64,000 bases of DNA from positions 12,318 to 76,317 of the forward strand of contig JACOXD010000011.1 of assembly GCA_016176465.1 (NCBI GenBank), given 5' to 3'. Below the pieces are notes generated by a model. That model did not search any database. It was not told where the DNA came from and saw only the letters and a list, made by a program, of their open reading frames with translations. The stretch comes from Candidatus Daviesbacteria bacterium. GTDB lineage: Bacteria > Patescibacteriota > Microgenomatia > Daviesbacterales > UBA10151. Shown one piece after another: positions 1 through 51,221 of the stretch. Position numbers and translations under genes: made by a program. The number at the start of each line of letters is the position of its first letter. Positions within the stretch are counted from its first letter, which is position 1.

Positions 1-137
1 CAGGTTGTGTTAACATTTCTACTCCTTATCAGCTCCCTCTTCATCCGATTGTCTTTCCAAAAGCTCCTGTTCGTCATCCTGGCTGCTACAAACCTCACAC
101 GGACATTTACCCGATTCGACCATTTCATCAACTGTGA

Positions 138-1580
138 TCATGCTTCTACCTCCTCTGTGTAGGAAAGTTCGGTTTGCGTTAGTTTAGAAGGTGACACTTG
201 TGACTCATGTGACTCTGCTTCTGATATACCGCTATCTTCTGAAGGGTCTGAATCTTTATTAGGTATATCTGTTTCAGTGTCAGAAGTGTCATTAGAGGTA
301 TCCAAACCATAATTGAGTTTGAGTTTCTCAATTAGATCCAGATCGTAGAAAATCCCTCGCTTACCAGCTGTCCTCTTCTTTACGAACCCTAACCCTCTTA
401 ATATTCTGCCGATGACATCTTCTGCTAGAGTAAATCGTTCTTCCTTACCAGTGTTAATTTTTTTAGTAACAGCCTCTATAGATAGGAATCCTTTTTCTAC
501 TTCGTAATTCAGGTCAATTACCATCTCTAAAACCTTGGCTTCTAGGGAATCAGTTGCATCTTCTTTTTTCCTCTCGGAAATAATGTTTAACAGTCGGGCA
601 AAAGAAGCTTCTTTTTCTGGGAAATAAGTGGTAACTATTTTATATAGTGAGCCAGCAATATCACCCAAACGCCCAGAAGCGGGTTTATCTACCTCTTTCA
701 GCTCATCCTGATAGTGTAAAATCCTAAAAGCAGTTAACCTGGCCTTTAGCTCCCATGCATCCTTAGGCGTTACTGGGTTATTGAATACCTTGCCTGTAGG
801 CTTCATATCAACTGAAATAGCTCTTGACTCTAAAATATCGTCAACAGGTCTATTTGTGGCAATTATGGTTGGACCAAATAAATTAAAGGTTTTGGTATCC
901 CTAAAGGCTCCTTTCTCAGGCCACAGGGTGCGTGATGAACTAGATCCTTCCTCGAACCGTGCCAAAATAAGATCATCACAATTAGCTCTTTGAAACTTCT
1001 TAGGTGCATCCTTAACATCAAAGCCTAAAGCAGCCTTATGGTCGTTACCCCAGCGGATAATATCAGCTTCCCGTACAGTCTCCGTCCATACTCCTCGGCG
1101 AGATACATAGATACATCCCTTACCGGTTCTACTTTTACCCCTCTCCTTAACTGCATAAAGATAAATAATGGGTGAAAAGTGCAGCTTATCCAATAGGTAG
1201 GTATGGAAATCCCACAAGGCTAAAAGGTCGTAATAGGCTTCATGGGGAAGATCTGATATATTCTTATGGTAAGTGAGCAACTCCTCATACAGATCTAAGC
1301 TGTGTCGTAGATTAGCCTTGTATTCAGCTAGATAATGGAAGACTTTGTCAGCATCGGCTATAAAGTAGGGTATTGAACTTTTAGGGGGTGGTGCAAAAAC
1401 CTTATCTTCAACCCTTATGGTGTCTACAAGATTCAGTCCTTCGGTTAGATAAACTAGTTTCTCTTCAACAACTAAGACATCAATGGTTCCTGGAGCATCT
1501 AGGGAGTATGTTACTCTGTCTTCTTTATTACTATCTTTTTTGGCTTTTAGCTTTTCATCAATCCCTTCAAAATTATCCAT
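138..1580 (-). CDS. Replication-associated protein (partner of Prim-Pol; primase C-terminal/helicase-like?), acidic Ser/Asp-rich tail
   Basis: 480 aa ORF overlapping the Prim-Pol stop by 8 bp (operon); no clear Walker A found; function inferred from context only. Confidence 0.3.
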   Translation of the reverse strand: MDNFEGIDEKLKAKKDSNKEDRVTYSLDAPGTIDVLVVEEKLVYLTEGLNLVDTIRVEDKVFAPPPKSSIPYFIADADKVFHYLAEYKANLRHSLDLYEELLTYHKNISDLPHEAYYDLLALWDFHTYLLDKLHFSPIIYLYAVKERGKSRTGKGCIYVSRRGVWTETVREADIIRWGNDHKAALGFDVKDAPKKFQRANCDDLILARFEEGSSSSRTLWPEKGAFRDTKTFNLFGPTIIATNRPVDDILESRAISVDMKPTGKVFNNPVTPKDAWELKARLTAFRILHYQDELKEVDKPASGRLGDIAGSLYKIVTTYFPEKEASFARLLNIISERKKEDATDSLEAKVLEMVIDLNYEVEKGFLSIEAVTKKINTGKEERFTLAEDVIGRILRGLGFVKKRTAGKRGIFYDLDLIEKLKLNYGLDTSNDTSDTETDIPNKDSDPSEDSGISEAESHESQVSPSKLTQTELSYTEEVEA

Positions 1581-2370
1581 TTTTTGTCCTTTCCCTAGTC
1601 AGAAAATTGACAGCACTTTCAAATTTCCGATTGACTTCTTTGGTTGCTAGTGGAGGCTGAAAGGTGGAATTTATAAAGAGCAGAAATTGATAGACTAGTT
1701 TTGATGGGATACCACGAGCCAATAAGCTACAAGCAGCTCTGTAGAGATTAATATCTCTAGCACCCTCTGTTTGCCCTAGAATTGACTTCCAATCCAAATT
1801 AGTTGAACTTTTGTTTGTACCCTGAAGATCAATTATCCATTGAGGCATTTCATGAAATTCATTAACAAATGGTGGAGTAATCCAAGTATATTGATTACCA
1901 GAGGCATGAATTGATGGTGGTAGAATTACGTAACCGCCATCGGATTTTAGATCAATTCCATCTTTTATCCCATTCTGGCTATGAACATTAGGATTATACT
2001 GGTAGAAATGGTGTGATCCACCCCCACCAGTTTGTGACTTAACTGTATCTGTTAGGTTATCAGTAGTACCAGCATGTCTTGGGTCAACATCAATTACACT
2101 AACACCGGATAGTTTTCCTGTAACAAGGCCAATATTTGCCCAGGGCCACTTTGACCACCAATCGTTTATCTCATCAATAGTTGGTAATTTCTTTTGGTAT
2201 TCAAACCAAGACTCAAGACAAGGTTTTTTATTGGACGGGTTAATAGGGATAACTGACCAACCTTTTGAAAGATATTTTAAAGCAGCCTCTAGATTAGTCA
2301 TTCTGTGCTTCCTCCGCTGCAACAAGTACGTATCCCTTTCCCTCACAGCCCTGACAAACTTTCGCTCCAT
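1573..2370 (-). CDS. Bifunctional DNA primase/polymerase (AEP-superfamily Prim-Pol) N-terminal domain protein
   Basis: Motifs KGWSVIP, GLVTG, VIDVDPRHAG (hhDhD), GGGSHHFY (sxH), IDLKSDGGYVILPPSIHASGNQYTW typical of pfam Prim-Pol. Confidence 0.75.
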   Translation of the reverse strand: MERKFVRAVRERDTYLLQRRKHRMTNLEAALKYLSKGWSVIPINPSNKKPCLESWFEYQKKLPTIDEINDWWSKWPWANIGLVTGKLSGVSVIDVDPRHAGTTDNLTDTVKSQTGGGGSHHFYQYNPNVHSQNGIKDGIDLKSDGGYVILPPSIHASGNQYTWITPPFVNEFHEMPQWIIDLQGTNKSSTNLDWKSILGQTEGARDINLYRAACSLLARGIPSKLVYQFLLFINSTFQPPLATKEVNRKFESAVNFLTRERTKNG

Positions 2371-2515
2371 ATTTCAAAGTTCCAAAACCACGACAAACCG
2401 GACACTCAATCGGTAAGTGCTTAGCTTTTACTTTAATTACTCTGATTTTTGTTTCTTTTTGAAAGTCGTCCATGCCATCCAAACCCAATCCTTTGAGATC
2501 ATAATGGCACATCAA
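2294..2515 (-). CDS. Small DnaJ-type zinc-finger protein (CxxCxGxG x2)
   Basis: 73 aa; CPVCRGFG ... CQGCEGKG repeats. Confidence 0.4.
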   Translation of the reverse strand: MMCHYDLKGLGLDGMDDFQKETKIRVIKVKAKHLPIECPVCRGFGTLKYGAKVCQGCEGKGYVLVAAEEAQND

Positions 2516-2603
2516 TTAAGGCTTCTCAAAAGGATTGTGTGAGAATTTTGATCCTGAAACAGACCAAAAAAGTTTTTATTAAAGCCGTATAAAGTAATGG
2601 GGC

Positions 2604-2993
2604 TTAAGTAGGTTTAAGATGATAAAACCACTTTCTACCTCGCCTGAACTTATCTATACCCATGTTCATATTTCTTAAGGGTTCATAAGATTTTATTGTC
2701 TTTCTGGTATCAGTTACCAAACGTCCTGGTGCCTTGCTATTTGTCTCTTCTGCAATCCCATTAATATCAAGGGAACCTTTTATAATAAGCGCTTCAAGTA
2801 GTTTTTGTTGTTTTTCTGGAAAATGAAAATTCTTTATGATAGTTTTGAACAAGCTGGTACGCTGTCTTCTGGCACTCTTTGGGTATTTTGGTTCATCAAT
2901 TTCTCTGATTTCATGACCCTCATCAGCCAAAAAAAGCCGCATTGCTGCTTGGGCAATAGGGGGCATTGATAGTTTTTTCTTCCTTCCATCCAT
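2604..2993 (-). CDS. Hypothetical protein (mobile-element accessory); starts with MDGRKK shared 19-nt start sequence
   Basis: 129 aa ORF; first 19 nt identical to start of ORF at 5262. Confidence 0.35.
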   Translation of the reverse strand: MDGRKKKLSMPPIAQAAMRLFLADEGHEIREIDEPKYPKSARRQRTSLFKTIIKNFHFPEKQQKLLEALIIKGSLDINGIAEETNSKAPGRLVTDTRKTIKSYEPLRNMNMGIDKFRRGRKWFYHLKPT

Positions 2994-3217
2994 CCTTCAA
3001 TAATTCCTTATATTGCGTGCATGGATTAACAGATTTTTCCAAGCTCACTACGCAGGGTAATTATACCTTAAAAAGTAGTATAATTGAATCTGAGCAGGCG
3101 TGGAGATAATTTTACCCCTAAGGATATTAAATTTTAACTATTTTTCACTTATTCTGGAAGCTAATGTAAGATTGTAGTGGGGGTATACATTTTTGATATG
3201 TGCTGTTAACCAGCTTC

Positions 3218-4081
3218 CTAAGGCTGAGCCATAATTTGTATCTTTTCCCGTTCCAATGCACTTTTTTCAGCTTGCAGCAAGTCAATTCTGTATCTCATGT
3301 CAGCTATAGTGTTGTTAATCATTTGTGTACAGATGTAATTATCACACCCTTGATCAAATTGTTGAACTTGGGCCTGTATATTGTTCTGCCAAAAAGCAAT
3401 GTCCTTATTGATCTTATTAATTTTTCCATCAATCATTTTTAGAGCTTGTTCTTTTCCTGTATTGGGGCTGGGAGTTGGTGAGGGGGTGGGTGTTGGAGTA
3501 CTTGTGGGCTTTGGGGTAGGAGAGCTTGTTTTAGGAACTTGAACGGGTTTAGGTGTAGGAGATACGTCCTTCAAAATTATATCTGATGAATCAAGTTTCC
3601 ATTTTCCGTCTTCTAATACCAGCTTCCAGATTCCTTCAAAAGTTTTGGTTTGAACTTGTCCCTTTAAATCATCTTTAGCTTCTATCTGAACATAAACTAT
3701 CTTGTTTGATAAATCCTGGACATAGACATCTTTAGTTACTACATTTAATGTGTTTTTGTAACCACTGACAAAATTATCATAATTCTGGGCATAATTTTGA
3801 AAATTTTTACTTAATAGATTCCAGGCAGAATCAAATTCTTTGGAAGATATTGCGGCATAGAAATCTTTTACAGGTATTAATAGATCAGATTCAACCATGG
3901 GAACAGGAGTTGGAGAAGGTTCTTGTTGCTCGGTTAGATTTTTTATCTGTAACAATCCACCTTCTCCGCTTAGGTTTAATTTAACTAAACCTGTTTCCCT
4001 AACCACCGCTACTGTAAATAATCCTACTACAGCCCAGATTATAATTGGAATTACCACAAATCCTTTTTGAGAGTTTGTCAT
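3218..4081 (-). CDS. Membrane-anchored protein with Pro/Thr-rich linker and C-terminal coiled coil
   Basis: N-terminal TM helix, PTPKPTSTPTPTPSPTPSP linker, Q-rich coiled-coil tail. Confidence 0.45.
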   Translation of the reverse strand: MTNSQKGFVVIPIIIWAVVGLFTVAVVRETGLVKLNLSGEGGLLQIKNLTEQQEPSPTPVPMVESDLLIPVKDFYAAISSKEFDSAWNLLSKNFQNYAQNYDNFVSGYKNTLNVVTKDVYVQDLSNKIVYVQIEAKDDLKGQVQTKTFEGIWKLVLEDGKWKLDSSDIILKDVSPTPKPVQVPKTSSPTPKPTSTPTPTPSPTPSPNTGKEQALKMIDGKINKINKDIAFWQNNIQAQVQQFDQGCDNYICTQMINNTIADMRYRIDLLQAEKSALEREKIQIMAQP

Positions 4082-4126
4082 ATTATTTACTCCTACTTTA
4101 TGTTAACACACCCAAAACCACTACAT

Positions 4127-4309
4127 TCACGGCTGCCACCAAGGTTTTTGACATTCTTCCCAAGCATCAAAACTCGTAATTTTACCCGCCATACGATCAG
4201 CAAATTCCTTTTGGCAATGATTATAGTACACATCACTTCTCCAGAAGTAAAAAAATAGAAGCCCAAACCCTATTAAGGCAACAATTAATACTTTTTGAAA
4301 GGTTGTCAT
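4127..4309 (-). CDS. Small single-pass membrane peptide, MTTFQK family (2 Cys in tail)
   Basis: 60 aa; MTTFQKVLIVALIGFGLLFFYFW... paralogous to 4333-4505 and 4972-5235. Confidence 0.4.
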   Translation of the reverse strand: MTTFQKVLIVALIGFGLLFFYFWRSDVYYNHCQKEFADRMAGKITSFDAWEECQKPWWQP

Positions 4310-4332
4310 TGTTTAATATATATGTTTATTTT

Positions 4333-4505
4333 TTATCAGGAATGAATCCAAAACCTTGCTTCGAATATTGATCGCAAATAGTAAAACGTTGTGGCGTTTC
4401 TGCTGTAGCACAAGCATAAAATTCAAAACCTGTTTTAAAAAAATATAAAAAGAGGGCTCCAAAAACTATTAAAATTGAAATAAGCCATTTTTGAAAAGTT
4501 GTCAT
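4333..4505 (-). CDS. Small single-pass membrane peptide, MTTFQK family paralog (57 aa, not in ORF track)
   Basis: Manual translation of minus strand: MTTFQKWLISILIVFGALFLYFFKTGFEFYACATAETPQRFTICDQYSKQGFGFIPDKK. Confidence 0.35.
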
Positions 4506-4952
4506 TTATCCTTTTCTATCTTTCTTCCTAATATGATCAATAAATATACTAACTATGGCATACAAAAAACCCAGAGCCAAAAAAGCACCCATTAATATTA
4601 GCAGAGATCCTGAGATAGCTCCTCCTATTTTTACTAAAATAGGATTACCCATATACCAACCTAGAAACATGAAAAGTGCGATAATAGATAATATAACAAT
4701 GCCAGTACGCCACACGTTACCTACAACCCACCAAAGTGTCACTTTCAGTCCGTCTTGCTCAATTCTTTTATCAACTTTCTTCCATAGTTTTTGAACAAGT
4801 AGAACTCCAAAGAAAAATAAAAGGACCTTGAAAGTATTCGTGTAGGTTTCTTCTGCAATAAAAGATATAAAAATGATCAAACCCAAGAGGGTAATTATGA
4901 CTGTATTATTTGATTCATCGTTATTGCTGTAATCTCCAATTTTATGTATCAT
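4506..4952 (-). CDS. Multi-pass membrane protein (4 TM), hypothetical
   Basis: 148 aa hydrophobic ORF. Confidence 0.4.
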   Translation of the reverse strand: MIHKIGDYSNNDESNNTVIITLLGLIIFISFIAEETYTNTFKVLLFFFGVLLVQKLWKKVDKRIEQDGLKVTLWWVVGNVWRTGIVILSIIALFMFLGWYMGNPILVKIGGAISGSLLILMGAFLALGFLYAIVSIFIDHIRKKDRKG

Positions 4953-4971
4953 TATTTTCCCTCTAAAAGAT

Positions 4972-5262
4972 TTAGGTTAACCAGAAAAAAATCAAAATTA
5001 CCAGGAAGAAAATAATATAGATTAATGTTATTTTCTTATAAAATTTCTGTTCAGATTTTTGCTCTATAACTAAATCCCATAGACTTAAACCTGTATGAAT
5101 TCCAGTTTTTAAGTTGAATGTAGAAATAGTAACTAGAATTGCCAAAAAAAACATCACTGGCGCAACAGCTGCTATAACTAAAATTTGAATAGGAAAAAAA
5201 AGAATTGCAACAAGCAATTTTTGAAAAGCTGTCATACTATTTGTTTTCTTCCTTCCATCCAT
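4972..5262 (-). CDS. Small membrane protein, MTAFQK family paralog with MDGRKK N-extension
   Basis: ORF track 4972-5301; likely start at 5262 (ATGGATGGAAGGAAG) or 5235 (MTAFQK). Confidence 0.35.
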   Translation of the reverse strand: MDGRKKTNSMTAFQKLLVAILFFPIQILVIAAVAPVMFFLAILVTISTFNLKTGIHTGLSLWDLVIEQKSEQKFYKKITLIYIIFFLVILIFFWLT

Positions 5263-5449
5263 ACCAGTATGAAAGTAGGAAAATTCCAATGATAACCACA
5301 ATTACTACTACCTGTTGTGAGTCTCCTCTTTCAAGAACTGGGGAAAGAAGCTGAAGCCCAAGAATTAAAGTTATTACAAAAAGAACTGCATAGGCATATT
5401 TTCTAAATCTCTTTGGAAACAGCAATAAAAGCCAAAGAATAGGATTCAT
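5237..5449 (-). CDS. Small 2-TM membrane protein, hypothetical
   Basis: 70 aa hydrophobic ORF. Confidence 0.3.
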   Translation of the reverse strand: MNPILWLLLLFPKRFRKYAYAVLFVITLILGLQLLSPVLERGDSQQVVVIVVIIGIFLLSYWYGWKEENK

Positions 5450-5531
5450 GTTCGTTTAACCTCAATTCATGCGTAAAACTGGAATATATTTCCTGTTCAT
5501 ATTCTGGCATATATTCCAGAATTTAGTCAAT

Positions 5532-5741
5532 ATGACCAAATATAAAAAACTTGGAGAGAAAGTTAAGAAATTGAGGAAAGCTCGAGATTGGACGCAAGAA
5601 AAATTGGCAGAAGCTGCAAATGTTGACCCAAAGACAATTATAGAGTTAGAAGCTGGTAAAAGAGCAAACCCTACCCTCCAAACTCTTAATAAACTTGCAA
5701 GAGCCTTAAAAACTTCTCTTGAAGAGTTACTCTCTACCTAA
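5532..5741 (+). CDS. XRE-family helix-turn-helix transcriptional regulator
   Basis: LGEKVKKLRKARDWTQEKLAEAANVDPKTIIELEAGKRANPTLQTLNKLARAL; start moved to internal ATG 5532. Confidence 0.7.
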   Translation: MTKYKKLGEKVKKLRKARDWTQEKLAEAANVDPKTIIELEAGKRANPTLQTLNKLARALKTSLEELLST

Positions 5742-5976
5742 AAATCCTGAGATGGTACCAATTTGAAGAAATTTATCCAGCTGGGGTTTTAAGGACCCTT
5801 AGAATAAGGACAGGGGACGTGAGAACCTATATATATTTTCCCACAGTTCCTATCTATGCTGTAAGCACAAAGTCACACACCACCTTCTGTATCAGAGAAA
5901 CCCCTTTTCTTTCTACTTCCTGTAATGTTAGTTATCGGAACAAAAATTGTCTGTCCTCCTATCTTAGCCTCAGCGT

Positions 5977-6699
5977 TCAGTTAATGGTCGTATACTGAAC
6001 ACCTGTGGGCAAATAATCCTTATAAAATGGGTTGTCCAAGATATATTTTATGCTTGATTTACCCATTCCAAACTTATCCCCAATAGCTTGCAAGGTTAGC
6101 TTCTCTTTTATTCTGAAGTTAAAGATTGCTTTTACCTTTTCAAACTCATTCTTATCAATGACCAAATCACTCTTTTGTGCCATATTACGCTTCTTTAACT
6201 TAAAGCCAAGCGGTAACATATCAGGTGATCCAAGTCTTCTACCCTGCCTTGTAAGTTCCTGTAGTGCATCAATTGTACGTTCTGCTATCAGATCCCGCTC
6301 CATCTGTGCCATAGCTCCCATGACTGTAAGAAAAAACTTACCAGAAGCAGAACTTGTATCTATATTCTCGTTTAGACTTATAAATTGAATATCATTTTTT
6401 GCAAAAACATCTTCAATAAGATAGAGGAGGTCCCGAGTTTTACGGGTTAATCGGTCTAATTTGTAGCAAATAACACCATCTATTTTCTTTTCCTTGACTA
6501 AATTTATGATTTTTTGAAGTCCTGGTCTATTCATGGTCTTACCAGATTTACCCTCCTCAATAATCATTTCCACTAAATCCATGTCCTTTAAATCCGCATA
6601 AGCCATAATTTTATGCTCCTGATTATCTAAGCTAACACCATCACGGCTCTGCTCAAGAGTTGATACCCTGGTATATCCAATTACTCTAAGCTTTTTCAT
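5977..6699 (-). CDS. Serine recombinase (resolvase/invertase type, N-terminal catalytic domain)
   Basis: VIGYTRVSTLEQ ... DGVICYKLDRLTR ... catalytic-Ser resolvase motifs. Confidence 0.85.
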   Translation of the reverse strand: MKKLRVIGYTRVSTLEQSRDGVSLDNQEHKIMAYADLKDMDLVEMIIEEGKSGKTMNRPGLQKIINLVKEKKIDGVICYKLDRLTRKTRDLLYLIEDVFAKNDIQFISLNENIDTSSASGKFFLTVMGAMAQMERDLIAERTIDALQELTRQGRRLGSPDMLPLGFKLKKRNMAQKSDLVIDKNEFEKVKAIFNFRIKEKLTLQAIGDKFGMGKSSIKYILDNPFYKDYLPTGVQYTTIN

Positions 6700-7241
6700 T
6701 TTTCTTCCTCATCAACAATTTTTATCCTTCTGTATCCCTTAATTGGTTTGCCATATGCGTAATGCGTTGGTGAACCTAAGATAGATTGCGGACGTCCTTT
6801 GTATTCTGGTTGATCTAATTTCTTAGTGAAATGTTTAACATCCGCTGTGAGTTTTCTGATGTCCTCGTTACAGGTATATAGATTTATTGCTTGGTGTAAG
6901 AAAACCGCCATAGAACCGCCAGGTTGGGCAGTTAATACTGGAGATAGCTTTTCAATAGCCTCATTAAACTGTTGTACTAATTTCGATCTTTCTTCTGATT
7001 TATCCGGTAAAGGAAGTCCAGCATATACTAATAACTCGGTACCATTTATCCTGTACCATTTACCTCCAAATTTATTAGCCTGTAACCTTCCTGATTTGAT
7101 AGCTCGATGAATAGTGGCTACTGAAACATGAAGCAATTCAGCTGCTTCCTCTGCTGTATAGGTCGTGAAATGTAATATTGGATCGCTCATAATGTTTAAG
7201 TCTACATCAACGATGATGTATTTGTCAATATTAAGATTCAT
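6696..7241 (-). CDS. Excisionase-family HTH DNA-binding protein (Xis/MerR-like) with C-terminal extension
   Basis: TAEEAAELLHVSVATIHRAIKSGRLQANKFGGKWYRING; 4-bp overlap with recombinase start. Confidence 0.55.
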   Translation of the reverse strand: MNLNIDKYIIVDVDLNIMSDPILHFTTYTAEEAAELLHVSVATIHRAIKSGRLQANKFGGKWYRINGTELLVYAGLPLPDKSEERSKLVQQFNEAIEKLSPVLTAQPGGSMAVFLHQAINLYTCNEDIRKLTADVKHFTKKLDQPEYKGRPQSILGSPTHYAYGKPIKGYRRIKIVDEEEK

Positions 7242-7286
7242 AATTAGATCATTTGCATGTGCTCTTGATAATCTTGAAAGGGGTAA

Positions 7287-7832
7287 CTAGTCTAATGAAA
7301 GGTTAATGGTCTTAACTTTCTCGATAGCCACCTTAAAGGCAGTGATACCATCGACTAAATCGGCATAGGCTCTATGTAATTGCCTAAAAGATACATACTT
7401 ACCAAGGCTATTCCAAGAAGGATGTGCAAAATCATTCCTTATATCATTTACTCTTGTCATTAATCTAAATAAGTCAACATCGAATTCGTATGTTTCATTA
7501 AGCTTTCTAAAAACCTCTAAGCGGCGAGCAAAACCTAATCTTTCTATAAAATTATCATAAAGAAACCTTGCTCTAGCTAATTGCGGTCCAGTTAGAGGTT
7601 TATCCCGAATTAAAATCCCTTTTGGATAAAAGTAATGTAGGATTGTAGTCGTCATCCCATCATCCATTTCAGCGTGAACAAAAATGGCCCAGTGCCTCAG
7701 CTCTTTTAAATCTTCTTTGGTTATATCTCCAAATGGTGGAGTCCTTCGATCAAAAACAGTTTCTAATCCCTCTAATATTTGTTTAAGAGTTGTAATCTGT
7801 TGCTTGTAGTTATTCACCCAGAAATTATACAA
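7287..7832 (-). CDS. Hypothetical protein
   Basis: 181 aa ORF, no recognised motif. Confidence 0.3.
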   Translation of the reverse strand: MYNFWVNNYKQQITTLKQILEGLETVFDRRTPPFGDITKEDLKELRHWAIFVHAEMDDGMTTTILHYFYPKGILIRDKPLTGPQLARARFLYDNFIERLGFARRLEVFRKLNETYEFDVDLFRLMTRVNDIRNDFAHPSWNSLGKYVSFRQLHRAYADLVDGITAFKVAIEKVKTINLSLD

Positions 7833-8089: not shown

Positions 8090-8860
8090 AACACCTTCGA
8101 GGTGGTCTAGGCAGGCACCTCTTCTCTATTCTAAAACCAAGTGCTTGATCTTATCTAATTCTCTAGCATAGCTTACTTGATCCAAAACAAATTTTTTATA
8201 TTCATTTATAGATTTAAAAAAACCTAAAACCTCCTCAGAGCTTGTAATCTTCTCTGCTTTTGGTACCAAATACTCAAAGTAAGAAGACCATTGGTAGTTT
8301 TCCAAATCCTCCGTCTTAATTAAGTAGGAAGTTACTGGGTTTAGATGAATATATCTTGATAGATGAATAAACTGTTCATCAGAATCAACAAACACTGCCT
8401 TGAATAACCCCTGAAGAAGTGGACCCACTCTTTTATTTTTGGTGTTAAAGTATTTGGTATAAGAGTTAGAAAAGTTAGATATAAATTTAGATATACCATT
8501 TTCTTTCTTCTGCTTTAGTAGGAAGTGAAAATGGTTGGGCATTAAACAAAAAGCAATAATTTCTACTAATACATTCTCATCATCTAAGTTTTTCCATAAT
8601 TCATCTTTTTTGTCATTTGCGAGATCTAAAAACTTGGAAAATTTCAAAGGCAGACTTCCGTAGCGGTAAAACTTTAAAGTTTCTAAAGCTCTTGAATATT
8701 CCCTGCTTTTGGTAAAAATTGGACGCTTCTCTACACCTCGATTAAAAACATGATAGATGATCTGCTCATTTGCAAAAACAAACTTTCTATTTGTGGGCAT
8801 CTATTTAAAGTATGGACTAAAAAAGGACAGGTGTCAACCCAGACCACCTTTCAGGTGGTT
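8090..8860 (-). mobile_element. IS200/IS605-like element (HUH Y1 transposase flanked by CACCT-N3-AGGTG hairpins; TTGACA in left end)
   Basis: Hairpins at 8092-8104 (caccttcgaggtg) and 8844-8858 (ccacctttcaggtgg) flank tnpA-like ORF; same motif flanks second copy at 42.5 kb. Confidence 0.6.
8126..8800 (-). CDS. tnpA: IS200-like / REP-associated tyrosine (HUH, Y1) transposase
   Basis: HuH motif LMPNHFHFLL and catalytic Tyr in SRYIHLNPV; ~70% identical paralog at 42589-43233. Confidence 0.75.
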   Translation of the reverse strand: MPTNRKFVFANEQIIYHVFNRGVEKRPIFTKSREYSRALETLKFYRYGSLPLKFSKFLDLANDKKDELWKNLDDENVLVEIIAFCLMPNHFHFLLKQKKENGISKFISNFSNSYTKYFNTKNKRVGPLLQGLFKAVFVDSDEQFIHLSRYIHLNPVTSYLIKTEDLENYQWSSYFEYLVPKAEKITSSEEVLGFFKSINEYKKFVLDQVSYARELDKIKHLVLE

Positions 8861-12857: not shown

Positions 12858-14675
12858 ATGGGATTTATAAGAAAGAATATAATTTATCCTTCTCTCTTAA
12901 GTTTAATAATTATTTTTTTTGCAGTTCAATCTAAAGAAGTGAGAGCAGCAGACTGTGCCTTAAGTAATATCCGCTTTGCAAGCTCTTCAAATACAATTTA
13001 TCTGTCTGGTCCCATAACTTGCAGCCTTTCTCAACTTAAAGCTTTAAAATCCTCTCTACCTTTATATTTAGTAGATGCCAGTAGTAAAACATGGTTGCTT
13101 AAAGCTAATTTAAAACTTGAAGATGGGGCAACTTTAAACCTTTATGGAACAAGTATAGGAGGCGACGTTAATTATTTGCGTTTAAAAAGTAACAATAGTT
13201 CAAGTGCTAACTCCATAGTATGGATTAGAGCTGATTGGGGCAATATAAATATTAAAAATACTAAAATCACCTCTTGGGATGAAGCTAAAAAGTCTCCAGA
13301 TACTGAGTACGGTAAATATAAACGCTCATTTATTCATGTTAGATCATTTCTTGCATCTGATGGTATTACCCCTAAAGAGTCTCGAATGGATATTATTGAC
13401 AGTGAGGTTGGATATTTAGGCTACTACGCGGCTGAATCATATGGTCTTGCATGGAAAGTTTCGGGAAGTGGACCTAATTTATATGACAAGGTTAATGTTT
13501 ATGGGGATGTTATAAATTCTCACATTCACCATAATTACTTTGGTATGTACACATTTGGTGCAGATGCAATGAAGATACAAAATAATGAAGTAGACACTAA
13601 TGTAATGTACGGAATAGACCCTCACGATGATTCTGATAATTTATTAATTGAAGGAAACAGAACTCACCACAATGGTACTCATGGAATAATTTGTTCACAA
13701 AGGTGTAACAATTTAACGATCAGAAACAATAAATCCTACGAAAATAAGGGTACAGGTATAATGCTTCATCGCAACACTAATGATTCTTTGGTAGAAAACA
13801 ATGATCTTTTTGGTAATTCAGATAGTGGTATTGCTATTTTTGATAGTCACGAAAACATAATCCGAGGAAATATTTCCCATGATAATAAAAATGGAATTAG
13901 ATTTAGTGTAGGCAGTTCTGGAAATACAACTGAACTAAATGAGTTTAGCGAAAATGACGGTTATGGCTTATATTTTTATAAAGGGAGCGATGCCCCGACA
14001 AGTGGAACTGGAAGAATAACTGGCAACAAGTTTATAAAAAATAAAGTTATAGATAATGGGGACTACGCTGTTAAATTAAAAGAAGCAGACTTGAATATTT
14101 TTGAGCAAAATGAATTTAAGGGCAATTCAAGAGAGATTAACATTTCAGACAGCAATCAAAATATATTTTTAGGCAATTTATCAGACAGTTTTTACAATGC
14201 TAGCCTTAAAGCTAAAAATACTATTAAAGATACGGATTCAGCTTTAGTAAAAGTCTCAGATTCAGCAAGCAGCATGGAAGTTTTAAGCAGTAGCAATTTT
14301 ATTTTTCAAAATGACAAAAGTCTTCCTACTAGCGCTGAAAATTCTAAAACTTACATAAATTTAACTCGTGCGCTAACCTCTTCAACAGTTAACTTCAAAA
14401 GACTTAATTTTAAAGTAAAGCCCGCTGCCGATAAAGTTGACGTAACAGTATTAACTTGGGAAACATCAAATTCTTTTGGTAAAAAATGGAAGGAAAAAGC
14501 AACTTCTTCTGTTACAGTAGATTATGAAGTTTCAGATTTAAAACCTGATACTAAGGTAGATGTTTTAATAAATGGGAATGTTTTTAACTCCTTTACTTCT
14601 GATTCATCAGGAAAAATTAACTTCACATATGATGGTAATGTACTGGAGCGAACTTTTGAAGTAAAGGAATCTTAA
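12858..14675 (+). CDS. Secreted right-handed beta-helix protein, AlgG-like C5-epimerase paralog
   Basis: Signal peptide; YGIDPHDDSDN and RNNKSYENKGTGIMLH motifs; paralog of C-terminus of 8907-11762. Confidence 0.6.
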   Translation: MGFIRKNIIYPSLLSLIIIFFAVQSKEVRAADCALSNIRFASSSNTIYLSGPITCSLSQLKALKSSLPLYLVDASSKTWLLKANLKLEDGATLNLYGTSIGGDVNYLRLKSNNSSSANSIVWIRADWGNINIKNTKITSWDEAKKSPDTEYGKYKRSFIHVRSFLASDGITPKESRMDIIDSEVGYLGYYAAESYGLAWKVSGSGPNLYDKVNVYGDVINSHIHHNYFGMYTFGADAMKIQNNEVDTNVMYGIDPHDDSDNLLIEGNRTHHNGTHGIICSQRCNNLTIRNNKSYENKGTGIMLHRNTNDSLVENNDLFGNSDSGIAIFDSHENIIRGNISHDNKNGIRFSVGSSGNTTELNEFSENDGYGLYFYKGSDAPTSGTGRITGNKFIKNKVIDNGDYAVKLKEADLNIFEQNEFKGNSREINISDSNQNIFLGNLSDSFYNASLKAKNTIKDTDSALVKVSDSASSMEVLSSSNFIFQNDKSLPTSAENSKTYINLTRALTSSTVNFKRLNFKVKPAADKVDVTVLTWETSNSFGKKWKEKATSSVTVDYEVSDLKPDTKVDVLINGNVFNSFTSDSSGKINFTYDGNVLERTFEVKES

Positions 14676-17907: not shown

Positions 17908-19278
17908 TTAGAGCTTAAATCTTCTGTCTGCTAAAAAAGGATTTGCTTTCCTATAAACTTTAACTGAGTTAAGTAAAACCCCTCTTTGCAAAGTAAACTC
18001 TCCAAACTTATCATTAATTTTATCTAAAGCTTTAGTTATAACTTCTTTTACTTTTACTTCTGGAAGAAGATTTAAGTTTTCAGGAGTTGTTGGTTTTAAA
18101 TTAGAAATAGAAATACCTATCATTCTTATAGCTTTCTCATCCCAAAGGCTCATGAATATCCCCCACCCTGTTTTAAATATTTCCAAACCGTCACTAGTAA
18201 AAGAAACTGTGCTTTGCGCTCCATCTCCTAAGAATCCAATCCCGGTTTGGAATTGAGGCGACAAACCGGGATTGTAGGTTTGTTTAAATGCATATCTAAA
18301 CCAAAGGGAAACAGTTTTACCTACTAGTTTTTTGGCTCGCATTCTTCTTGCAACTAATTCTGAAAGCTTAAGCAAGATTTGTTTAATTTCTTCATAAGAG
18401 TCTGCGTCATGATCTATTGTGTGTCTATGACCAATTGATTTTACTTCTTCTTTCTCATAAAAAGGGCTGACAGGAGAATCATCCAATCCCCTGCTCATGT
18501 TATATAAAGTTTGTCCATAACTTTTAAAAGAGGCTAATAAATACTCCAAGTTTACTCTTCTTAAATCAGAAAAATTAAAAATCCCCATATTATTTAACCT
18601 CCTTTTAATCCTAAACCCTATCCCACAAACCTCATTTAGCTCAATTTGGTCTAAAATTCTCATTGCTGCCTGCTCATCTGCTATTACCAGCAACCCATCG
18701 GGTTTGTATAAAGACCCAGCTAATTTAGCTAAAAATTTGTTATAAGAAATCCCAATAGAACATGTAATCCACTCCCCAATCTTAGCTCTTATTTGGGATT
18801 TAATATCTATAGCCATTTCAATAACGTCATTCCCGACCCGCTTCGCCGGAGCGAGAGCGAGGCGAGCCTGATCGGGAATCTGAATAGATCTCCCAATCGA
18901 GTTGGAAGATGACATTTTTAATTTGGGTGATGACTTCTTGGGCTGAGGCAGTTCTATAAATGCCTCATCGATAGAGAAAAGCTCTATATAGGGGGAATAG
19001 CTTTTTAGAATATTTAAAAATTTTTTAGTAGTAGATAAGTATTTATCAGAATCCCCTTTTACTAAAATTAATTGTGGACAAAGTTTTCTAGCTTCATATA
19101 AATTCATCCCAGTTTTTACCCCAAACTTTTTAGCCTCCACTGATGCAGCACCAACTACAGTCCTCTTCATTCTATCTCCACCAGTTACCCCAATAGGTTT
19201 ACCTCTAAGTCTTGGGTTAGCTTGCTGTTCAACCCTGGCAAAGTAGCTATTAAAATCTATATGTAATATTGTTCTCAT
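17908..19278 (-). CDS. dinB: DNA polymerase IV (Y-family, DinB) carrying two in-frame palindromic insertions
   Basis: ILHIDFNSYFARVEQ, SIDEAFIEL, YNKFLAKLAG; insertions at 18237-18274 and 18829-18879. Confidence 0.8.
   Translation of the reverse strand: MRTILHIDFNSYFARVEQQANPRLRGKPIGVTGGDRMKRTVVGAASVEAKKFGVKTGMNLYEARKLCPQLILVKGDSDKYLSTTKKFLNILKSYSPYIELFSIDEAFIELPQPKKSSPKLKMSSSNSIGRSIQIPDQARLALAPAKRVGNDVIEMAIDIKSQIRAKIGEWITCSIGISYNKFLAKLAGSLYKPDGLLVIADEQAAMRILDQIELNEVCGIGFRIKRRLNNMGIFNFSDLRRVNLEYLLASFKSYGQTLYNMSRGLDDSPVSPFYEKEEVKSIGHRHTIDHDADSYEEIKQILLKLSELVARRMRAKKLVGKTVSLWFRYAFKQTYNPGLSPQFQTGIGFLGDGAQSTVSFTSDGLEIFKTGWGIFMSLWDEKAIRMIGISISNLKPTTPENLNLLPEVKVKEVITKALDKINDKFGEFTLQRGVLLNSVKVYRKANPFLADRRFKL
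18237..18274. repeat. RPE-like palindromic element (perfect 13-bp stem CAATCCCGGTTTG/CAAACCGGGATTG) in frame within dinB
   Basis: Encodes YNPGLSPQFQTGIG; near-identical copies in uvrB and uvrC. Confidence 0.7.
18829..18879. repeat. GC-rich palindromic in-frame insertion in dinB (ATTCCCGA-35 nt-TCGGGAAT)
   Basis: ~70% GC segment in AT-rich gene; encodes extra loop IPDQARLALAPAKRVGNDV absent from canonical DinB. Confidence 0.5.
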
Positions 19279-39305: not shown

Positions 39306-40619
39306 TTATATACCTACTCTGCTAAACATTTTTTTACTTCTTAACTTAAGGTGATAGTTAAGTGCAAAACGGTGGGATTCATCTCTGATTTTTTGCAATA
39401 AACGAAGAGACATTCTTCTTTTAGGGATCTTTACAATTTCTCCCTCAATTGGATATAACCTCTCCATTTTTTTTGCCAATCCAAATATAGGAATACTTAC
39501 TTCTCGTTTCTCTAAGATAGCGGCCACCCCTCTAACCTGACCTCTCCCTCCATCGATTATAATTAAATCTGGAAAGGGCCACTCAGGATGATTTAGTCTC
39601 CTCCTCATCATCTCAGATAGCATTGCTACATCATTAGGTTTTCCAGTAATTTTTATTTTAAACTTTCGATACTGCGATTTATCTATTTCTCCATTTGCTA
39701 AAACTACAAGTGATCCTGAAGCTTCCCCCCCTTGAATATTAGAAATATCATAACCTTCAATCCTCTTAGGCAAATTAGGCAATTTCAAATCCGTCATTAG
39801 CTGCTTTAATCCCAACTTATTTTGGTCTTCCAAAAAATTAGGATTATCTAAATACATTGAAATCTCAGTTGGTTGGGTAATATATTCAATCCCAGAAATT
39901 GTTTTCTTTAAAGTTTCTGCCTTTTCAAATTGCAAGTTTTTTGCAAGATCTTTCATTTCAACTTGCAACTCACTTAACAAAACTTCTTTTTCTCCACCTA
40001 TAAATTTAATAAAGCGGTTAATAATTTTTCGGTACTCTTTTGCATCTATCAAACCTATACAGGCTCCGGGACAAAGTCTTAGATGATAGTAAAAACATGG
40101 TCTAGCTTTCCAATCCCGGATTGGATTTGAATTGACAATCCGGGATTGGATGGTTATTTTCGATGGATTAGAACACCAAGGGAAGACTCTCCTTATTTTT
40201 TTTAAAGTTTGATTAACAGTACGGGATGAAGGAAAAGGACCAAAATATTTCAATGCATCGCTTAGTTCCTGCTTTCTGGAAGTTATTATCCTTGGGAACT
40301 TTTCCTTAGTGACTTTAATATAAAGATAATCTTTATTATCAGTTAAGCGGACGTTAAAGGTGGGCAAATTTTTTTTAATTAAATTGGCTTCCAAAATAAG
40401 TGCTTCTAATTCCGATTCCACCACAAAAAAAACAATGTCGGCAATACTTTCTACTAATTGGGCTGTTTTTAAAGATGATCTATCTCTAAAATAGGAGGCA
40501 ACCCTGGACTTTAAATCTACTGCTTTGCCCACATATAAAATGTCACCTTTTAAATCTTTAAATATGTAAACGCCACTTTTGTGAGGAATATCCTCTTTCG
40601 ATAAATTCTTGGGAATCAT
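39306..40619 (-). CDS. uvrC: Excinuclease ABC subunit C (short form lacking C-terminal HhH2) with in-frame palindromic insertion
   Basis: GIY-YIG SGVYIFKDLKGDILYVGKA, UVR domain, RDESHRFAL; 437 aa. Confidence 0.8.
   Translation of the reverse strand: MIPKNLSKEDIPHKSGVYIFKDLKGDILYVGKAVDLKSRVASYFRDRSSLKTAQLVESIADIVFFVVESELEALILEANLIKKNLPTFNVRLTDNKDYLYIKVTKEKFPRIITSRKQELSDALKYFGPFPSSRTVNQTLKKIRRVFPWCSNPSKITIQSRIVNSNPIRDWKARPCFYYHLRLCPGACIGLIDAKEYRKIINRFIKFIGGEKEVLLSELQVEMKDLAKNLQFEKAETLKKTISGIEYITQPTEISMYLDNPNFLEDQNKLGLKQLMTDLKLPNLPKRIEGYDISNIQGGEASGSLVVLANGEIDKSQYRKFKIKITGKPNDVAMLSEMMRRRLNHPEWPFPDLIIIDGGRGQVRGVAAILEKREVSIPIFGLAKKMERLYPIEGEIVKIPKRRMSLRLLQKIRDESHRFALNYHLKLRSKKMFSRVGI
40110..40149. 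repeat. RPE-like palindromic element (15-bp stem CCAATCCCGGATTGG/CCAATCCGGGATTGG) in frame within uvrC
   Basis: Encodes IQSRIVNSNPIRDW; read in a different frame from the dinB/uvrB copies. Confidence 0.7.
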
Positions 40620-42534: not shown

Positions 42535-43265
42535 TAGCTTGACACTAGCTTGACACCTGAAAGGTGTACGCATAAACTTTACTAGTATATGCCTGGTAGA
42601 CTTGTACCCCTAGTTAATGGAGAGTTTTATCATATTTATAATCGTGGTAGTGATAAGCGCAATATTTTTTTGCAAAATAGAGATTACATCAGATTTCAAA
42701 AAACTTTTTATTATTACCAATTTTTAGGTCCGAAGGTAAGATTTTCTAAATTTGCTAAATCTACCTTAAACCTCTTTAATCCAACACTAAATGAAAAATT
42801 AGTAGAAATTCTCTGCTTTTGTTTAATGCCTAATCATTTCCACCTACTTTTGGTTCAACAAAAAGAAAACGGCATTTCTTCCTTTATTAGTCAACTTGCT
42901 AATAGCTACACCAAGTACTTTAATACGAAATATTCTAGGGTAGGTGCATTATTTCAAGGAGTTTTTAAGTCTGTGCGGATTTCATCAGATGAGCAGCTAA
43001 TTCATATATCACGCTACATACATATTAACCCAATAGTATCTGGTTTAACAAAGAACCTCAAAAACTATAAGTGGTCATCATATTCTGAATACTTACGAAA
43101 TAGAGAAACTTTTTGCCAGATCAGCACTATTTTAAATCTTTTCCCTTCTTCCAAAAAATACTCTGAGTTTATTGAAAATCAAATTAGCTATGGAACCACT
43201 CTCGAAATGATTAAACATCAAAAAATTGATTAATTAAATTCGTGCGGACACCTGAAAGGTGCAAA
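42535..43265 (+). mobile_element. IS200/IS605-like element, second copy
   Basis: LE tagcttgaca-tagcttgacacctgaaaggtgtac (42535-42568) with TTGACA/TAAACT promoter; RE hairpin cacctgaaaggtg 43249-43261. Confidence 0.6.
42589..43233 (+). CDS. tnpA: IS200-like / REP-associated tyrosine (HUH, Y1) transposase
   Basis: LMPNHFHLLL and SRYIHINPI; paralog of 8126-8800. Confidence 0.75.
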   Translation: MPGRLVPLVNGEFYHIYNRGSDKRNIFLQNRDYIRFQKTFYYYQFLGPKVRFSKFAKSTLNLFNPTLNEKLVEILCFCLMPNHFHLLLVQQKENGISSFISQLANSYTKYFNTKYSRVGALFQGVFKSVRISSDEQLIHISRYIHINPIVSGLTKNLKNYKWSSYSEYLRNRETFCQISTILNLFPSSKKYSEFIENQISYGTTLEMIKHQKID

Positions 43266-43266
43266 G

Positions 43267-46170
43267 TTAAATAACTTTTGCTAAATATTGACCTGTGTAA
43301 GAGGATTTATTCTTTGCAATGTCTTTTGGAGTACCTTCTGCTATTACTTTTCCACCTAAATCTCCACCTTCAGGTCCTAAATCTATTACCCAGTCTGCGT
43401 TTTTAATTACATCTAAGTTGTGTTCAATAATCAAAACAGTATTTCCCAGGTTAACTAACTTTGTCAAAATTGTCAGTAACCTTTCTATATCTGCAAAGTG
43501 CAAACCAGTTGTAGGCTCATCCAGAATATACAAAGTAAGTCCTGTTTGTCTTTTGGATAATTCCGTTGCTAGTTTTATTCTTTGGGCTTCTCCACCTGAT
43601 AAAGTTGGCGCAGGTTGACCCAAGTGAATATAACCTAATCCTACCTCATTTAAAACTTGTAATTTATTTTTAGCTTGTGGGATATTGGCAAAAAATTCCA
43701 GTGCCTCCTCAACTGTCATATCTAGCACATCAGCAATATTTTTATCCTTAAAGTGAATTTCCAAAGCTTCTCTGTTATAACGTTTCCCATTACATGCCTC
43801 ACAAGTTACATAAATATCAGGCAAAAATTGCATCTCTATTTTAATTTGTCCTTCTCCCTCGCAAACTTCACACCTACCTCCTTTTACATTAAAAGAAAAC
43901 CTACCTGGCTTATATCCTTTAATTTTTGCCTCAGGGGAGGTTGCAAATAACTCTCTAATAAAAGTAAAAAGTCCTGTATAAGTTGCTGGATTAGATCTAG
44001 GCGTTCTGCCAATAGGTGATTGATCAACTAAAATTACTTTATCAATATTCTCATCCCCCTCCAATCTTTCAAATTTGCCCGGACGTTCTTTAGAGTGATA
44101 AAACTTAGAAGCTAGGGATTTAAACAAAATATCATGGATTAAAGTAGATTTACCCGATCCAGAAACCCCTGTTATAGCTATGAAATTACCCAAAGGGAAC
44201 TCTACATCAACATTTTTTAAGTTATGTTCCGAGGCTCCCAAAACTTTTAAAATGGTGGTATTTTCTTTAATTAATCCGTTAGTCTTGACTTCCACCTTTT
44301 TTCTACCTGCCAAATAAGCACCGGTCAAGCTCTGCTTATTTTTCATTAACTCCAAAGGAGTCCCAGTAGCAACAATTTTTCCGCCGTGTTCTCCAGCTCC
44401 CGGGCCGATTTCATAAAGAATGTCGGCGTTTTCCATTGTTTCACTATCATGCTCACTAACAATAACTGTATTTCCCAAGTCTCTTAACTTTTTTAGGGTT
44501 GTAATTAATCTTCTATTATCTCGCTGGTGCAATCCAATTGATGGTTCATCTAAAACATATAAAACCCCTGATAAACCTGAACCTATCTGGGAAGCAAGCC
44601 TAATTCTTTGTGCTTCTCCTCCTGCCAAAGTCATAGAAGAGCGATCTAGCGTTAAATAATTTAAACCAACGTCCATTAAAAACTGTAATCTTGATTCAAT
44701 CTCTTTAACTACAGGTTTAGCAATTGTTAATTCCCGTTCACTAAGCAATGGGGTTTTTAACTCCTTAACCCAATCCAAACCCTGAGCTATGGATTGAGAA
44801 GTAACTTCGGAAATGTTGGAATCATTAATAGTGATGGATAAAACTTCATCTTTTAACCTTGCGCCGTTACACTTGGGACAAATCTCCCGCAGCATGTATT
44901 TTTCAATTTCACCCTTAACATAATCAGACTCGGTTTCAGAGTAGCGCTCTTTTAAATAAGGCACGATCCCCTGGAAAGTTGAGTAAAAATGAGTCCATCG
45001 TCCTTGCCTATTTTTACCTTCAACTTTAAACTGCTTGTCTCCATCCCCAAATAATAATACTTTTCTGGCCTGCGCGGATAGCTGGCCAAGTCTGGTACTC
45101 AGATCAAAACCATACTCTGCCCCGACAGCTTCAATAAGCCTGGAAAACCAGGTTTCCGATCCAGCTAAACGCTGCCAGGGCAAAATGCCTCCTTCTCTAA
45201 TAGATAAAATAGGATTTAAGATTGCATCAGCATCTATTTCTAAAAGTGACCCAAGTCCCGCGCAAGTAGGACAAGCTCCATGAGGAGAGTTAAAAGAAAA
45301 AGTTCTTGGTTCTATTTCAGGCAAAGCAATGTTATCTACTGGACAAGCAAACCGCTCTGAATATAAATGATCCTCCATTTTTTTGGGGTTAGTAGGGAAT
45401 TCTAAAGAGGCATCCAAGACTTCCGAAACAATTAATGTTCCCTCCCCCAACTTTAGCGCTGTTTCAACTGATTGATTGAGTCTGGATTTAACTTGTGAAT
45501 CTTTAATAGATTTAGCGTCTAAACTCAATCTATCAACCAGCGCATCAATACTATGTTTATTAGTTTTAATTAACATTAAATCCTCTGATAAATCCCTAAT
45601 CTGCCTATCAATTCTGGCTCTTGAAAATCCTTTTTTCGCAAGATCATCTAAAAGAGAGCTATACTCCCCCTTTCTATCTTTAACAATAGGGGCTAAAATC
45701 ATTATCCTTTTTATCTTTCTATTTGATCCTTCGACTACGCTTTGGATAACGCTCTGTGTTATTTGCTCAACACTCATTCTGGATATTTCCCTGCCACAAA
45801 TAGGACAATGCGGGTGACCAACTCTGGCAAAAAGTAATCTTAAATAATCATAAACTTCTGTTGTAGTGCCTACTGTAGAGCGAGGATTGTGAGAGGCGCT
45901 CTTTTGGTCAATTGAAATAGCCGGAGATAACCCTTCTATATAATCTACATCTGGCTTATCCATTACTCCTAAAAACTGTCTAGCATAAGCACTCAAAGAT
46001 TCTACATATCTTCTTTGCCCTTCAGCATATAAGGTATCAAAAGCTAAGGAAGATTTCCCCGAACCAGAGATACCTGTAAAAACTACTAATTTATTTTTCG
46101 GTATAACTAAATCTATATTCTTAAGATTATGCTGCCTGGCTCCTTTTATAATAATTTTATCTGTTGACAA
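43267..46170 (-). CDS. uvrA: Excinuclease ABC subunit A
   Basis: Two ABC ATPase modules, [33 protein letters not shown], Zn-finger Cys; TTG start. Confidence 0.95.
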
Positions 46171-51187: not shown

Positions 51188-51221
51188 TTAGCTTGACACC
51201 TGAAAGGTGTACTCGTAAATT
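51188..51221 (+). promoter_or_regulatory. Solo IS200-like left-end/REP-like hairpin carrying outward TTGACA-17-TAAATT promoter
   Basis: tagcttgacacctgaaaggtgtac identical to LE of the 42.5 kb IS copy; no transposase adjacent. Confidence 0.4.

Follow-up and report, generated by a model that had tools for sequence, protein, structure and literature searches.

Palindromic inserts in DNA-repair genes of a Candidatus Daviesbacteria bacterium: probable REPIN-type elements associated with a RAYT-like Y1 transposase

Three palindromes within repair genes of the window

The stretch analyzed here, referred to as the window, comprises 64,000 nucleotides of a Candidatus Daviesbacteria contig (JACOXD010000011.1, positions 12,318 to 76,317 of the forward strand; assembly GCA_016176465.1) with a G+C content of approximately 35%. 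Its subject is a short palindromic element that is present three times inside conserved DNA-repair genes: in dinB (DNA polymerase IV, 456 aa, 17908-19278; named by NCBI, with the Pfam domains IMS and IMS_C), in uvrC (437 aa, 39306-40619; GIY-YIG, UVR and RNase H-like domains) and in uvrB (672 aa, 49116-51134). All three open reading frames (ORFs) are encoded on the minus strand; they run on through the element without a change of frame and reach the conserved domains downstream of it. The DinB and UvrB proteins are identical to NCBI entries from a Candidatus Daviesbacteria contig of 82.6 kb. A search of the window with the pattern CAATCCCGG-N(10-30)-CCGGGATTG returned exactly three matches, all of the CAATCCCGG-N20-CCGGGATTG type (18237-18274, 40111-40148 and 49877-49914), compared with none in 100 shuffles of the same sequence (zero expected); the original prediction of one dispersed palindrome lying in frame within dinB, uvrC and uvrB is thereby confirmed.

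The dinB copy (18237-18274; coordinates of palindromes are given without strand throughout) consists of CAATCCCGGTTTG, a 12-nt loop and CAAACCGGGATTG, and encodes YNPGLSPQFQTGIG on the minus strand; the uvrC copy (40109-40150) forms a 15-bp stem (TCCAATCCCGGATTG/CAATCCGGGATTGGA) around its loop and encodes IQSRIVNSNPIRDW in another frame; the uvrB copy is a 45-bp insertion (49872-49916; 15 codons, 15 residues) with a 38-bp core at 49877-49914. The perfect stems, predicted to be 13-15 bp long, were measured as 13, 15 and 13 bp in dinB, uvrC and uvrB, respectively, whereas the loop is 12 nt in each copy and not about 11 nt as first described; the uvrC copy had been placed at 40110-40149, but its pattern match covers 40111-40148 and its stem reaches from 40109 to 40150. 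Folding of each copy with its flanks as single-stranded DNA (ssDNA) yielded the expected hairpin (-14 to -19 kcal/mol, z = -5.5 to -7.9). Each arm is in addition a 13-bp palindrome on its own (CAATCC-C-GGATTG and CAATCC-G-GGATTG, i.e. CAATCC(C/G)GG(A/T)TTG); in consequence, the 38-bp unit is a doublet of inverted repetitive extragenic palindromic (REP) sequences, the arrangement known as REPIN (REP doublet forming a hairpin). The family consensus exceeds these 38 bp (cGAACCTA + 38 bp + GAAAGCTA; in another writing CGAACCTA-CAATCCSGGATTG-GAAAG, with CAATCCSGGATTG as the hairpin), and the full unit of two 13-bp arms, a 12-nt spacer and about 8 bp of flank per side amounts to approximately 45-54 bp instead of the 38-40 bp originally assigned to the element.

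The Rfam scan of the window detected five tRNAs only and gave no match at the elements. A derivation of the left flank from a tRNA T-arm (tRNA-Lys carries a one-mismatch CAATCCCGA) was a passing thought that found no support, and nothing was found in support of a restriction-modification origin either (CCSGG core). The UvrC protein of the window, at 437 aa, is short and without the C-terminal helix-hairpin-helix region; those of relatives comprise 430-449 aa.

The palindromes are insertions and not ancestral protein sequence, in agreement with the original prediction. Among the 120 closest orthologs (72-80% identity in the case of UvrB), the UvrB site is empty in 70 ('SLA-GKD-NVAQQL') and the DinB site in approximately 14. 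Codon alignment with two empty orthologs (L075 and L076; matching and related sequences are cited by L numbers) defined the uvrB insert as exactly 15 codons (TA + 38-bp core + GAAGC); at other sites the inserts measure roughly 36-54 bp versus the 45 bp in uvrB. The solved UvrB structure 9gy7_E leaves a 17-residue gap opposite the insert, and the solved DinB structure 7yll_A, although poorly aligned, has a gap at the corresponding position. According to the AlphaFold2 model of the window DinB (mean predicted local distance difference test score, pLDDT, of 78.9), the insert is positioned in a low-confidence loop (residues 330-350) between the strands 318-329 and 351-361 of the little-finger domain; the ortholog alignments of DinB and UvrB together with this model bear out the proposed lineage-specific inserts in surface loops. 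Decayed versions of the element, e.g. YNLGLSPLFQSRIG, were present in DinB ortholog peptides that had been found independently of the pattern scan. An assembly artefact is contradicted by the recurrence of the same elements at the same sites in independent metagenome-assembled genomes (MAGs) and metagenome assemblies of different projects; the uvrC site, for example, is also filled in L001, L018, L025, L028 and L031. Both explanations, ancestral sequence and artefact, are thus excluded, and apart from the perfect repeats themselves nothing speaks in their favor. The earlier description of the copies as recent insertions of one mobile palindrome holds with regard to the single dispersed family; their recency is not established, as the same sites are filled in several Daviesbacteria and presence, absence and insert type change in a patchy manner.

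Dispersal of the family and its link to Y1 transposase genes

Relatives were searched for further copies, as suggested with the original prediction. Among 185,579 species genomes, the exact pattern was matched at 27 loci, nearly all of them in Daviesbacteria or Microgenomates MAGs, and the metagenomes of the Joint Genome Institute (JGI) yielded 44 further loci; a scan of viral contigs for the element gave no matches. After removal of duplicates and with L020 set aside, the window and the loci L001-L071 contain 52 unique strict copies: 30 are intragenic (inside an ORF of 100 codons or more, with no fewer than 20 of them on either side), 9 lie immediately 5' of a Y1 gene, and 13 are intergenic or at gene starts. 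The locus set aside (L020, 7323-7363) is the sole match outside the candidate phyla radiation (CPR); it is located on a Verrucomicrobiota contig of 64% G+C, its arms are the same but enclose another spacer of 15 nt, which is self-complementary, and it is probably unrelated to the element family.

Half of the intragenic strict copies (15 of 30) reside in repair genes (UvrC 8, at two sites; DinB 3; UvrB 2; RecR 1; RecO 1), the others in TsaB (6), Def (3), Tgt, a methyltransferase, glycosyltransferases and membrane proteins. Since same-site copies in different genomes are not independent events, distinct sites were counted as well, with approximately 6 of 14 in repair genes; this share looks well above the expectation from gene content, the latter being an estimate and not a computed value. 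The clustering in repair genes is real but not exclusive. A DNA uptake sequence, considered as a source of the repair-gene bias, was dropped, since the density is low (three copies in 64 kb) and the element has a link to a transposase gene.

This link was observed in nine distinct places (L010, L027, L032, L035, L042, L043, L048, L058 and L070), where a Y1 gene starts 17-30 bp downstream of an element that represents the fullest form of the family; a single arm (..CTACAATCCGGGATTGgaa..) follows the stop codon of these genes. The encoded proteins of about 215 aa match the Pfam family Y1_Tnp (IS200-like) with 37.8 bits against a cut-off of 23. A search of the PDB with the single Y1 sequence gave no match; with a profile of 12 family sequences the top match was 4er8, the TnpA-REP of E. 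coli (E = 6.6e-4), spanning both the HuH (MPNHFH) and the Tyr (RYIHLNP) motif. Both motifs are invariant in the family, as are H83, H85 and Y143. The family is large in Patescibacteria, where its members are annotated merely as 'transposase'. The eight full-length Y1 proteins flanked by CAATCCCGG share 66-79% mutual identity and at most 58% with Y1 proteins having other flanks (CACCTGAAAGGTG, CACCCTTGGGGTG, GCAACCTTCGAGGTTGC); other Y1 clades are bracketed by other 13-bp palindromes (CACCCTTGGGGTG in L055, GCAACCTTCGAGGTTGC in L061, CACCTTAAAGGTG in L054). The palindrome family thus co-varies with the transposase clade.

The window itself contains a gene of this family, of a clade different from the CAATCCCGG-cognate ones, between uvrA (43267-46170) and uvrC: a Y1 (HuH) gene (42589-43233, plus strand, 214 aa) resembling the REP-associated tyrosine transposases (RAYTs), with the 13-bp palindrome CACCTGAAAGGTG as flanking REP on its 5' side (42554-42566) and 3' side (43249-43261). 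The same uvrA-Y1-uvrC synteny is present in L075. Local hopping from a transposase gene embedded between these uvr genes may be one cause of the repair-gene bias, but L079 carries such inserts with no Y1 gene nearby.

On these grounds, the three palindromes of the window are probably copies of a miniature, non-autonomous REP/REPIN-type element tied to a RAYT-like Y1 transposase. The enzyme would recognize the hairpin in ssDNA, cut it and rejoin it at new sites; in compact genomes such as these, those copies would persist that have a length divisible by three and a frame free of stop codons and that landed in a surface loop, and the survivors would be translated passively as 14-18 extra residues. 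A miniature inverted-repeat transposable element (MITE) had been considered as well, given that the arms could act as terminal inverted repeats, but there is no duplication at the uvrB junction, and the outer flanks show no inverted-repeat relationship.

At one of the nine transposase loci (L048, approximately 1150-1260), a CACACCCGGTGTG..TTGACACACC unit directly precedes the CAATCCCGG REPIN upstream of the Y1 gene; the two palindrome families stacked at the 5' end of this transposase gene may represent a snapshot of family turnover.

Spacer orientation, reading frames and promoter-like sequences

When copies are aligned with their flanks in the same direction, the spacer reads as 'flip' (TCAA...) in 11 cases and as 'sense' (...TTGA) in 9. 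All nine Y1-adjacent copies have the sense form, as do some further copies, most of them intergenic; the flip form is found in most intragenic copies. Read directly from its sequence, the element is open in five of the six reading frames. The YNPGL frame acquires a TGA stop codon from the sense spacer, and only flipped copies can therefore persist there; the pattern of frame, length and spacer is what a selective filter acting on random insertions would produce. At the second UvrC site, the flanks of L037 and L053 are 81-85% identical in the same orientation, whereas their 38-bp cores are identical (38/38) in opposite orientation, with the spacers AAGGTTCAAAAC and GTTTTGAACCTT as exact reverse complements between identical outer flanks; the DinB copies of the window and of L017 differ by the same flip. 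Because the outer flanks retain their orientation, an in-situ inversion of the core is more economical than two independent insertions. The inversion would probably be brought about by recombination or intrastrand template switching between the arms, a process by which the arms would also remain perfectly complementary in the absence of selection on structure.

The Y1-adjacent copies have a promoter-like anatomy: spacer and second arm give TTGACA, and the right flank gives TAAAnT at a spacing of 17 bp. In the window, a scan located TTGACA-17-TATTTT on the plus strand inside the uvrC copy and antisense to uvrC (40132-40160), and TTGACA-17-TAAACT upstream of the Y1 gene between uvrA and uvrC (42550-42578), overlapping its 5' palindrome. 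A dispersed intergenic copy of CACCTGAAAGGTG (51197-51209), located between uvrB and the ORF 51254-51640, includes TTGACA-17-TAAATT (51193-51221) and could serve as putative promoter of this host gene. Promoter-like matches are not in excess in the region (43 versus 45.3 in shuffles), so that a promoter reading, in spite of the clear hexamers in the Y1-adjacent copies, is reduced to a consensus match.

These hexamers are among the arguments for another explanation of the copies, namely as cis-acting elements selected in place, either as paired 13-bp dyad operators or as internal antisense promoters, within a DNA-damage regulon whose lineage-specific regulator co-evolves with them. Each arm is indeed a perfect dyad, the arms are 25 bp apart centre to centre, and uvrA, uvrB, uvrC, dinB, recR and recO recur as carriers across genomes and families. 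Orthologs of approximately 80% identity are without the site, however, the types are distributed patchily on the tree, and TsaB, Def, Tgt and glycosyltransferases carry copies as well; moreover, the spacer is flipped in most intragenic copies, with the result that the -35 hexamer is parted from the -10 hexamer, and no regulator was identified for the proposed regulon. A regulatory origin is for these reasons hardly to be expected.

Shared insertion sites and relation to known palindromic elements

The UvrB site of the window element is filled in 50 of the 120 closest orthologs, and by different inserts: NPGL..QTGI (the family of the window element, six sequences), HTPGV..HTGC, HLRGE..HLGG, HPRGE..HPGG, KGV..PEGV, VIPANAGIQ.. 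and others. Other internal UvrB insert sites are rare in the same set (3, 1 and 1 sequences). On a weakly resolved neighbour-joining (NJ) tree the insert types are patchy, the window UvrB grouping with an empty ortholog and near a carrier of a different hairpin. DNA retrieved for four other insert types confirmed them as hairpins: CACACACCCGGTGTG-GAATTGAATCTA-CACACCGGGTGTGTG in L073, with a spacer homologous to that of the window family; CACCCCCGGGGTG, 23 nt and CACCCCGGGGGTG in L074; ACCTTCCCAC-ATGGAGA-GTGGGAAGGT in L072; and CACCTCCGAGGTG, 23 nt and CACCTCGGAGGTG in UvrB of L079, where the family recurs in frame in UvrA of the same genome. The hairpins of L073, L074 and L079 have the layout of the window family, i.e. 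two arms of 13-15 bp with a central C in one and a central G in the other, and the REPIN layout was found in the CACACC, CACCCC and CACCTC families. By back-translation, peptides such as HLEGG and HLRG would be the coding of palindromes that flank other Y1 clades, an assignment checked at the DNA level for L079 only. The uvrA of L079 has its in-frame CACCTCCGAGGTG-family REPIN at 13814-13862; the tblastn match is split near 14137/14139 and no gene was called, which could reflect a frameshift, a pseudogene or an assembly error.

In DinB, different inserts likewise occupy two sites. The second hotspot (residues approximately 113-150) follows the DEAFIEL motif, and residues 119-146 have pLDDT values below 50 in the AlphaFold2 model. 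In the window dinB it holds a second, unrelated palindromic insertion (18829-18879) with the arms ATTCCCGAtC (18870-18879) and GgTCGGGAAT (18829-18838) separated by a 31-nt spacer, which encodes IPDQ...VGND; in orthologs it holds other repeat-derived peptides (SVIARSE..DCHA..LAMT, VIPAKAGIQ, ILRLTSFAQDD).

Such repeated use of one position raises the possibility of targeted insertion, in which the Y1 transposase or the hairpin steers successive REPIN families to repair-gene sites, by insertion preference or in-situ replacement and not by selection alone. The at least five hairpin families at the single UvrB site, the analogous situation in DinB, the presence of one family in both UvrA and UvrB of L079, the published cross-phylum bias of such insertions to repair genes (PMC3733652) and the Y1 gene inside the uvrA-uvrC cluster are all in line with this explanation. 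On the other hand, junction alignment revealed neither a shared target motif nor a target-site duplication at the empty uvrB sites, no Y1 gene is located near the uvrA and uvrB REPINs of L079, the filled sites are exactly those where the structures tolerate loops, and the poor resolution of the NJ tree makes the counts of independent gains soft. Targeting of this kind is accordingly possible but rather unlikely. Somewhat more doubtful still is the specific proposal that the sites in uvrA, uvrB, uvrC, dinB, recR and recO are genuine landing pads to which REPIN families are directed at the same codon-level positions, flipped and replaced in place; if it were true, the hairpins could tune repair capacity or supply internal promoters, and the cross-phylum repair bias would gain a mechanistic cause, e.g. 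ssDNA at damage-induced genes or local hopping from the transposase in the uvr cluster.

The REP/REPIN-RAYT systems (Nunvar 2010; Bertels and Rainey 2011, PMC3116915; Ton-Hoang 2012) resemble the Daviesbacteria elements in their paired, inverted short palindromes that form one hairpin and are dispersed in several copies, in the Y1 HuH gene flanked by its own palindromes, and in the coexistence of several transposase clades in one genome, each having a palindrome family to itself. In both, the transposase gene keeps a syntenic position, which suggests vertical inheritance. The Daviesbacteria unit differs by its small size (13 bp, doublet 38 bp), by the promoter-like site for the transposase gene in the 5' copy, by its CPR host and by the intragenic, in-frame location of more than half of the well-preserved copies. 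IS200/IS605 elements and their palindrome-associated derivatives share the Y1 HuH transposase, subterminal hairpins at both gene ends in direct orientation, the absence of target duplication and a presumed ssDNA intermediate; in Daviesbacteria, in contrast, the transposase gene seems syntenically fixed, and it is the tiny hairpin and not the gene that disperses.

Several observations weigh against the assignment to the REPIN type. Of the features characterizing REPINs, dispersal, the inverted doublet, a Y1 gene flanked by the cognate palindrome (in relatives) and clade co-variation were found; the canonical 5' GTAG or CGTC tag is absent from the element, and the extragenic location, the conventional REP feature, is contradicted by the 30 of 52 unique strict copies inside ORFs. 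The 5' foot reads cCTA-CAATCC in many copies, so that GTAG comes to lie 3' on the opposite strand, in mirror image to the canonical position; in other copies gca, ttc or atc is present instead. The transposase role of the Y1 family is a predicted activity, and the sole NCBIfam match of the protein, NF047646 (REP-associated tyrosine transposase), scores 48 bits and thus remains below the curated cut-off of 80. The window contains no CAATCCCGG-cognate Y1 gene, as both of its Y1 genes are flanked by different palindromes. The uvrB junction is devoid of a target-site duplication, and one dominant UvrB site, filled by several families in 50 of 120 orthologs, is hard to explain by tolerance alone. 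Finally, the conservation of the arms among the fetched loci is no evidence, because the strict search pattern demanded perfect arms.

Rickettsia palindromic elements (RPEs), reportedly described by Ogata and colleagues in 2000 and 2002, had been named in the original prediction as the only well-known precedent. These palindromic repeats likewise interrupt conserved genes without shifting the frame, and the proteins accommodate them as additional surface segments; RPE-1 is approximately 100-150 bp long, restricted to Rickettsia and without a linked transposase. The precedent is not the only one: Di Nocera, De Gregorio and Rocco (2013, BMC Genomics 14:522, PMC3733652) described intragenic GTAG- and CGTC-tagged REPs whose dimers encode 20-30 residues of the host ORFs, markedly over-represented in genes of replication and repair (uvrA, uvrB, UvrD, Pol I, recBCD, DnaE2) and present in tRNA-related enzymes as well, equated RPE-4 and RPE-6 with CGTC-tagged REPs, reported REPs in the uvrB of R. 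conorii, and speculated on mutator effects of such insertions. The Daviesbacteria palindromes could be regarded as a member of the RPE families, or as a direct analogue, a selfish palindrome that lacks a dedicated transposase, propagates by some other means and is translated along with its host gene. Their in-frame copies, co-linear with conserved genes and open in most frames, as well as the equation of RPEs with REPs (PMC3733652), are compatible with such an affiliation; the CPR host, the unit of only 38-54 bp, the missing CGTC tag and the cognate Y1 gene physically linked to the element in nine distinct places render it improbable. The likeness to RPEs holds for the reading-through as extra loops, whereas the closest kind is the REP/REPIN element with a cognate RAYT-like Y1 transposase.

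The insertions in Daviesbacteria are thus a known kind of event, intragenic REPs biased to repair genes, in a new bacterial group and at unusual hotspots. The 2013 survey covered Opitutus, Rickettsia, Thauera, Thioalkalivibrio and others but no CPR genomes, and described neither the use of one codon-level site by several families nor in-place flipping (PMC3733652); full-text literature searches found no paper tying RAYTs or REPINs to the CPR or Patescibacteria. Beyond the earlier descriptions are the different REPIN families at the same codon-level UvrB and DinB sites across lineages and the in-place flip of the 38-bp core; together with the CPR host, the tiny unit and the mostly intragenic survival, these are the points of interest of the system. 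To our knowledge, REPIN-RAYT work has been carried out almost entirely on Proteobacteria, in which the elements are viewed as extragenic, possibly beneficial passengers, and we know of no answer to the puzzle, posed in 2013, of the repair-gene preference of intragenic REPs. Here, in a CPR bacterium with an ultra-compact genome, the majority of the well-preserved copies have persisted within essential or repair proteins, in loops that serve several families. REPIN dispersal, the repair-gene preference of intragenic REPs and the insertion tolerance of conserved enzymes can be studied in this natural system. The hairpins inflate and diversify CPR proteins and can mislead annotation, alignment and structure prediction.

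Outside the uvr region, the window contains a second RAYT-like Y1 gene of a third clade (8126-8800, minus strand, 224 aa), with the REPs CACCTTCGAGGTG downstream (8092-8104) and CACCTTTCAGGTG upstream (8845-8857). It adjoins a block of small ORFs (1-7832) that looks like an integrated mobile element and includes, as annotated on the matching contig L077, Prim-Pol, a serine resolvase and HTH proteins. Among the genomes with the Daviesbacteria element are three third-party annotation (TPA) MAGs titled 'uncultured Gammaproteobacteria' (CAYLXC01, CAYHYM01 and CAYWKL01; L001, L002, L005, L072 and others) with approximately 35% G+C. Judged from these sequence features, and from the DinB of CAYWKL, which is 72% identical to that of the window and stands in a matching gene order, the label appears to be wrong and the three MAGs appear to be Daviesbacteria.

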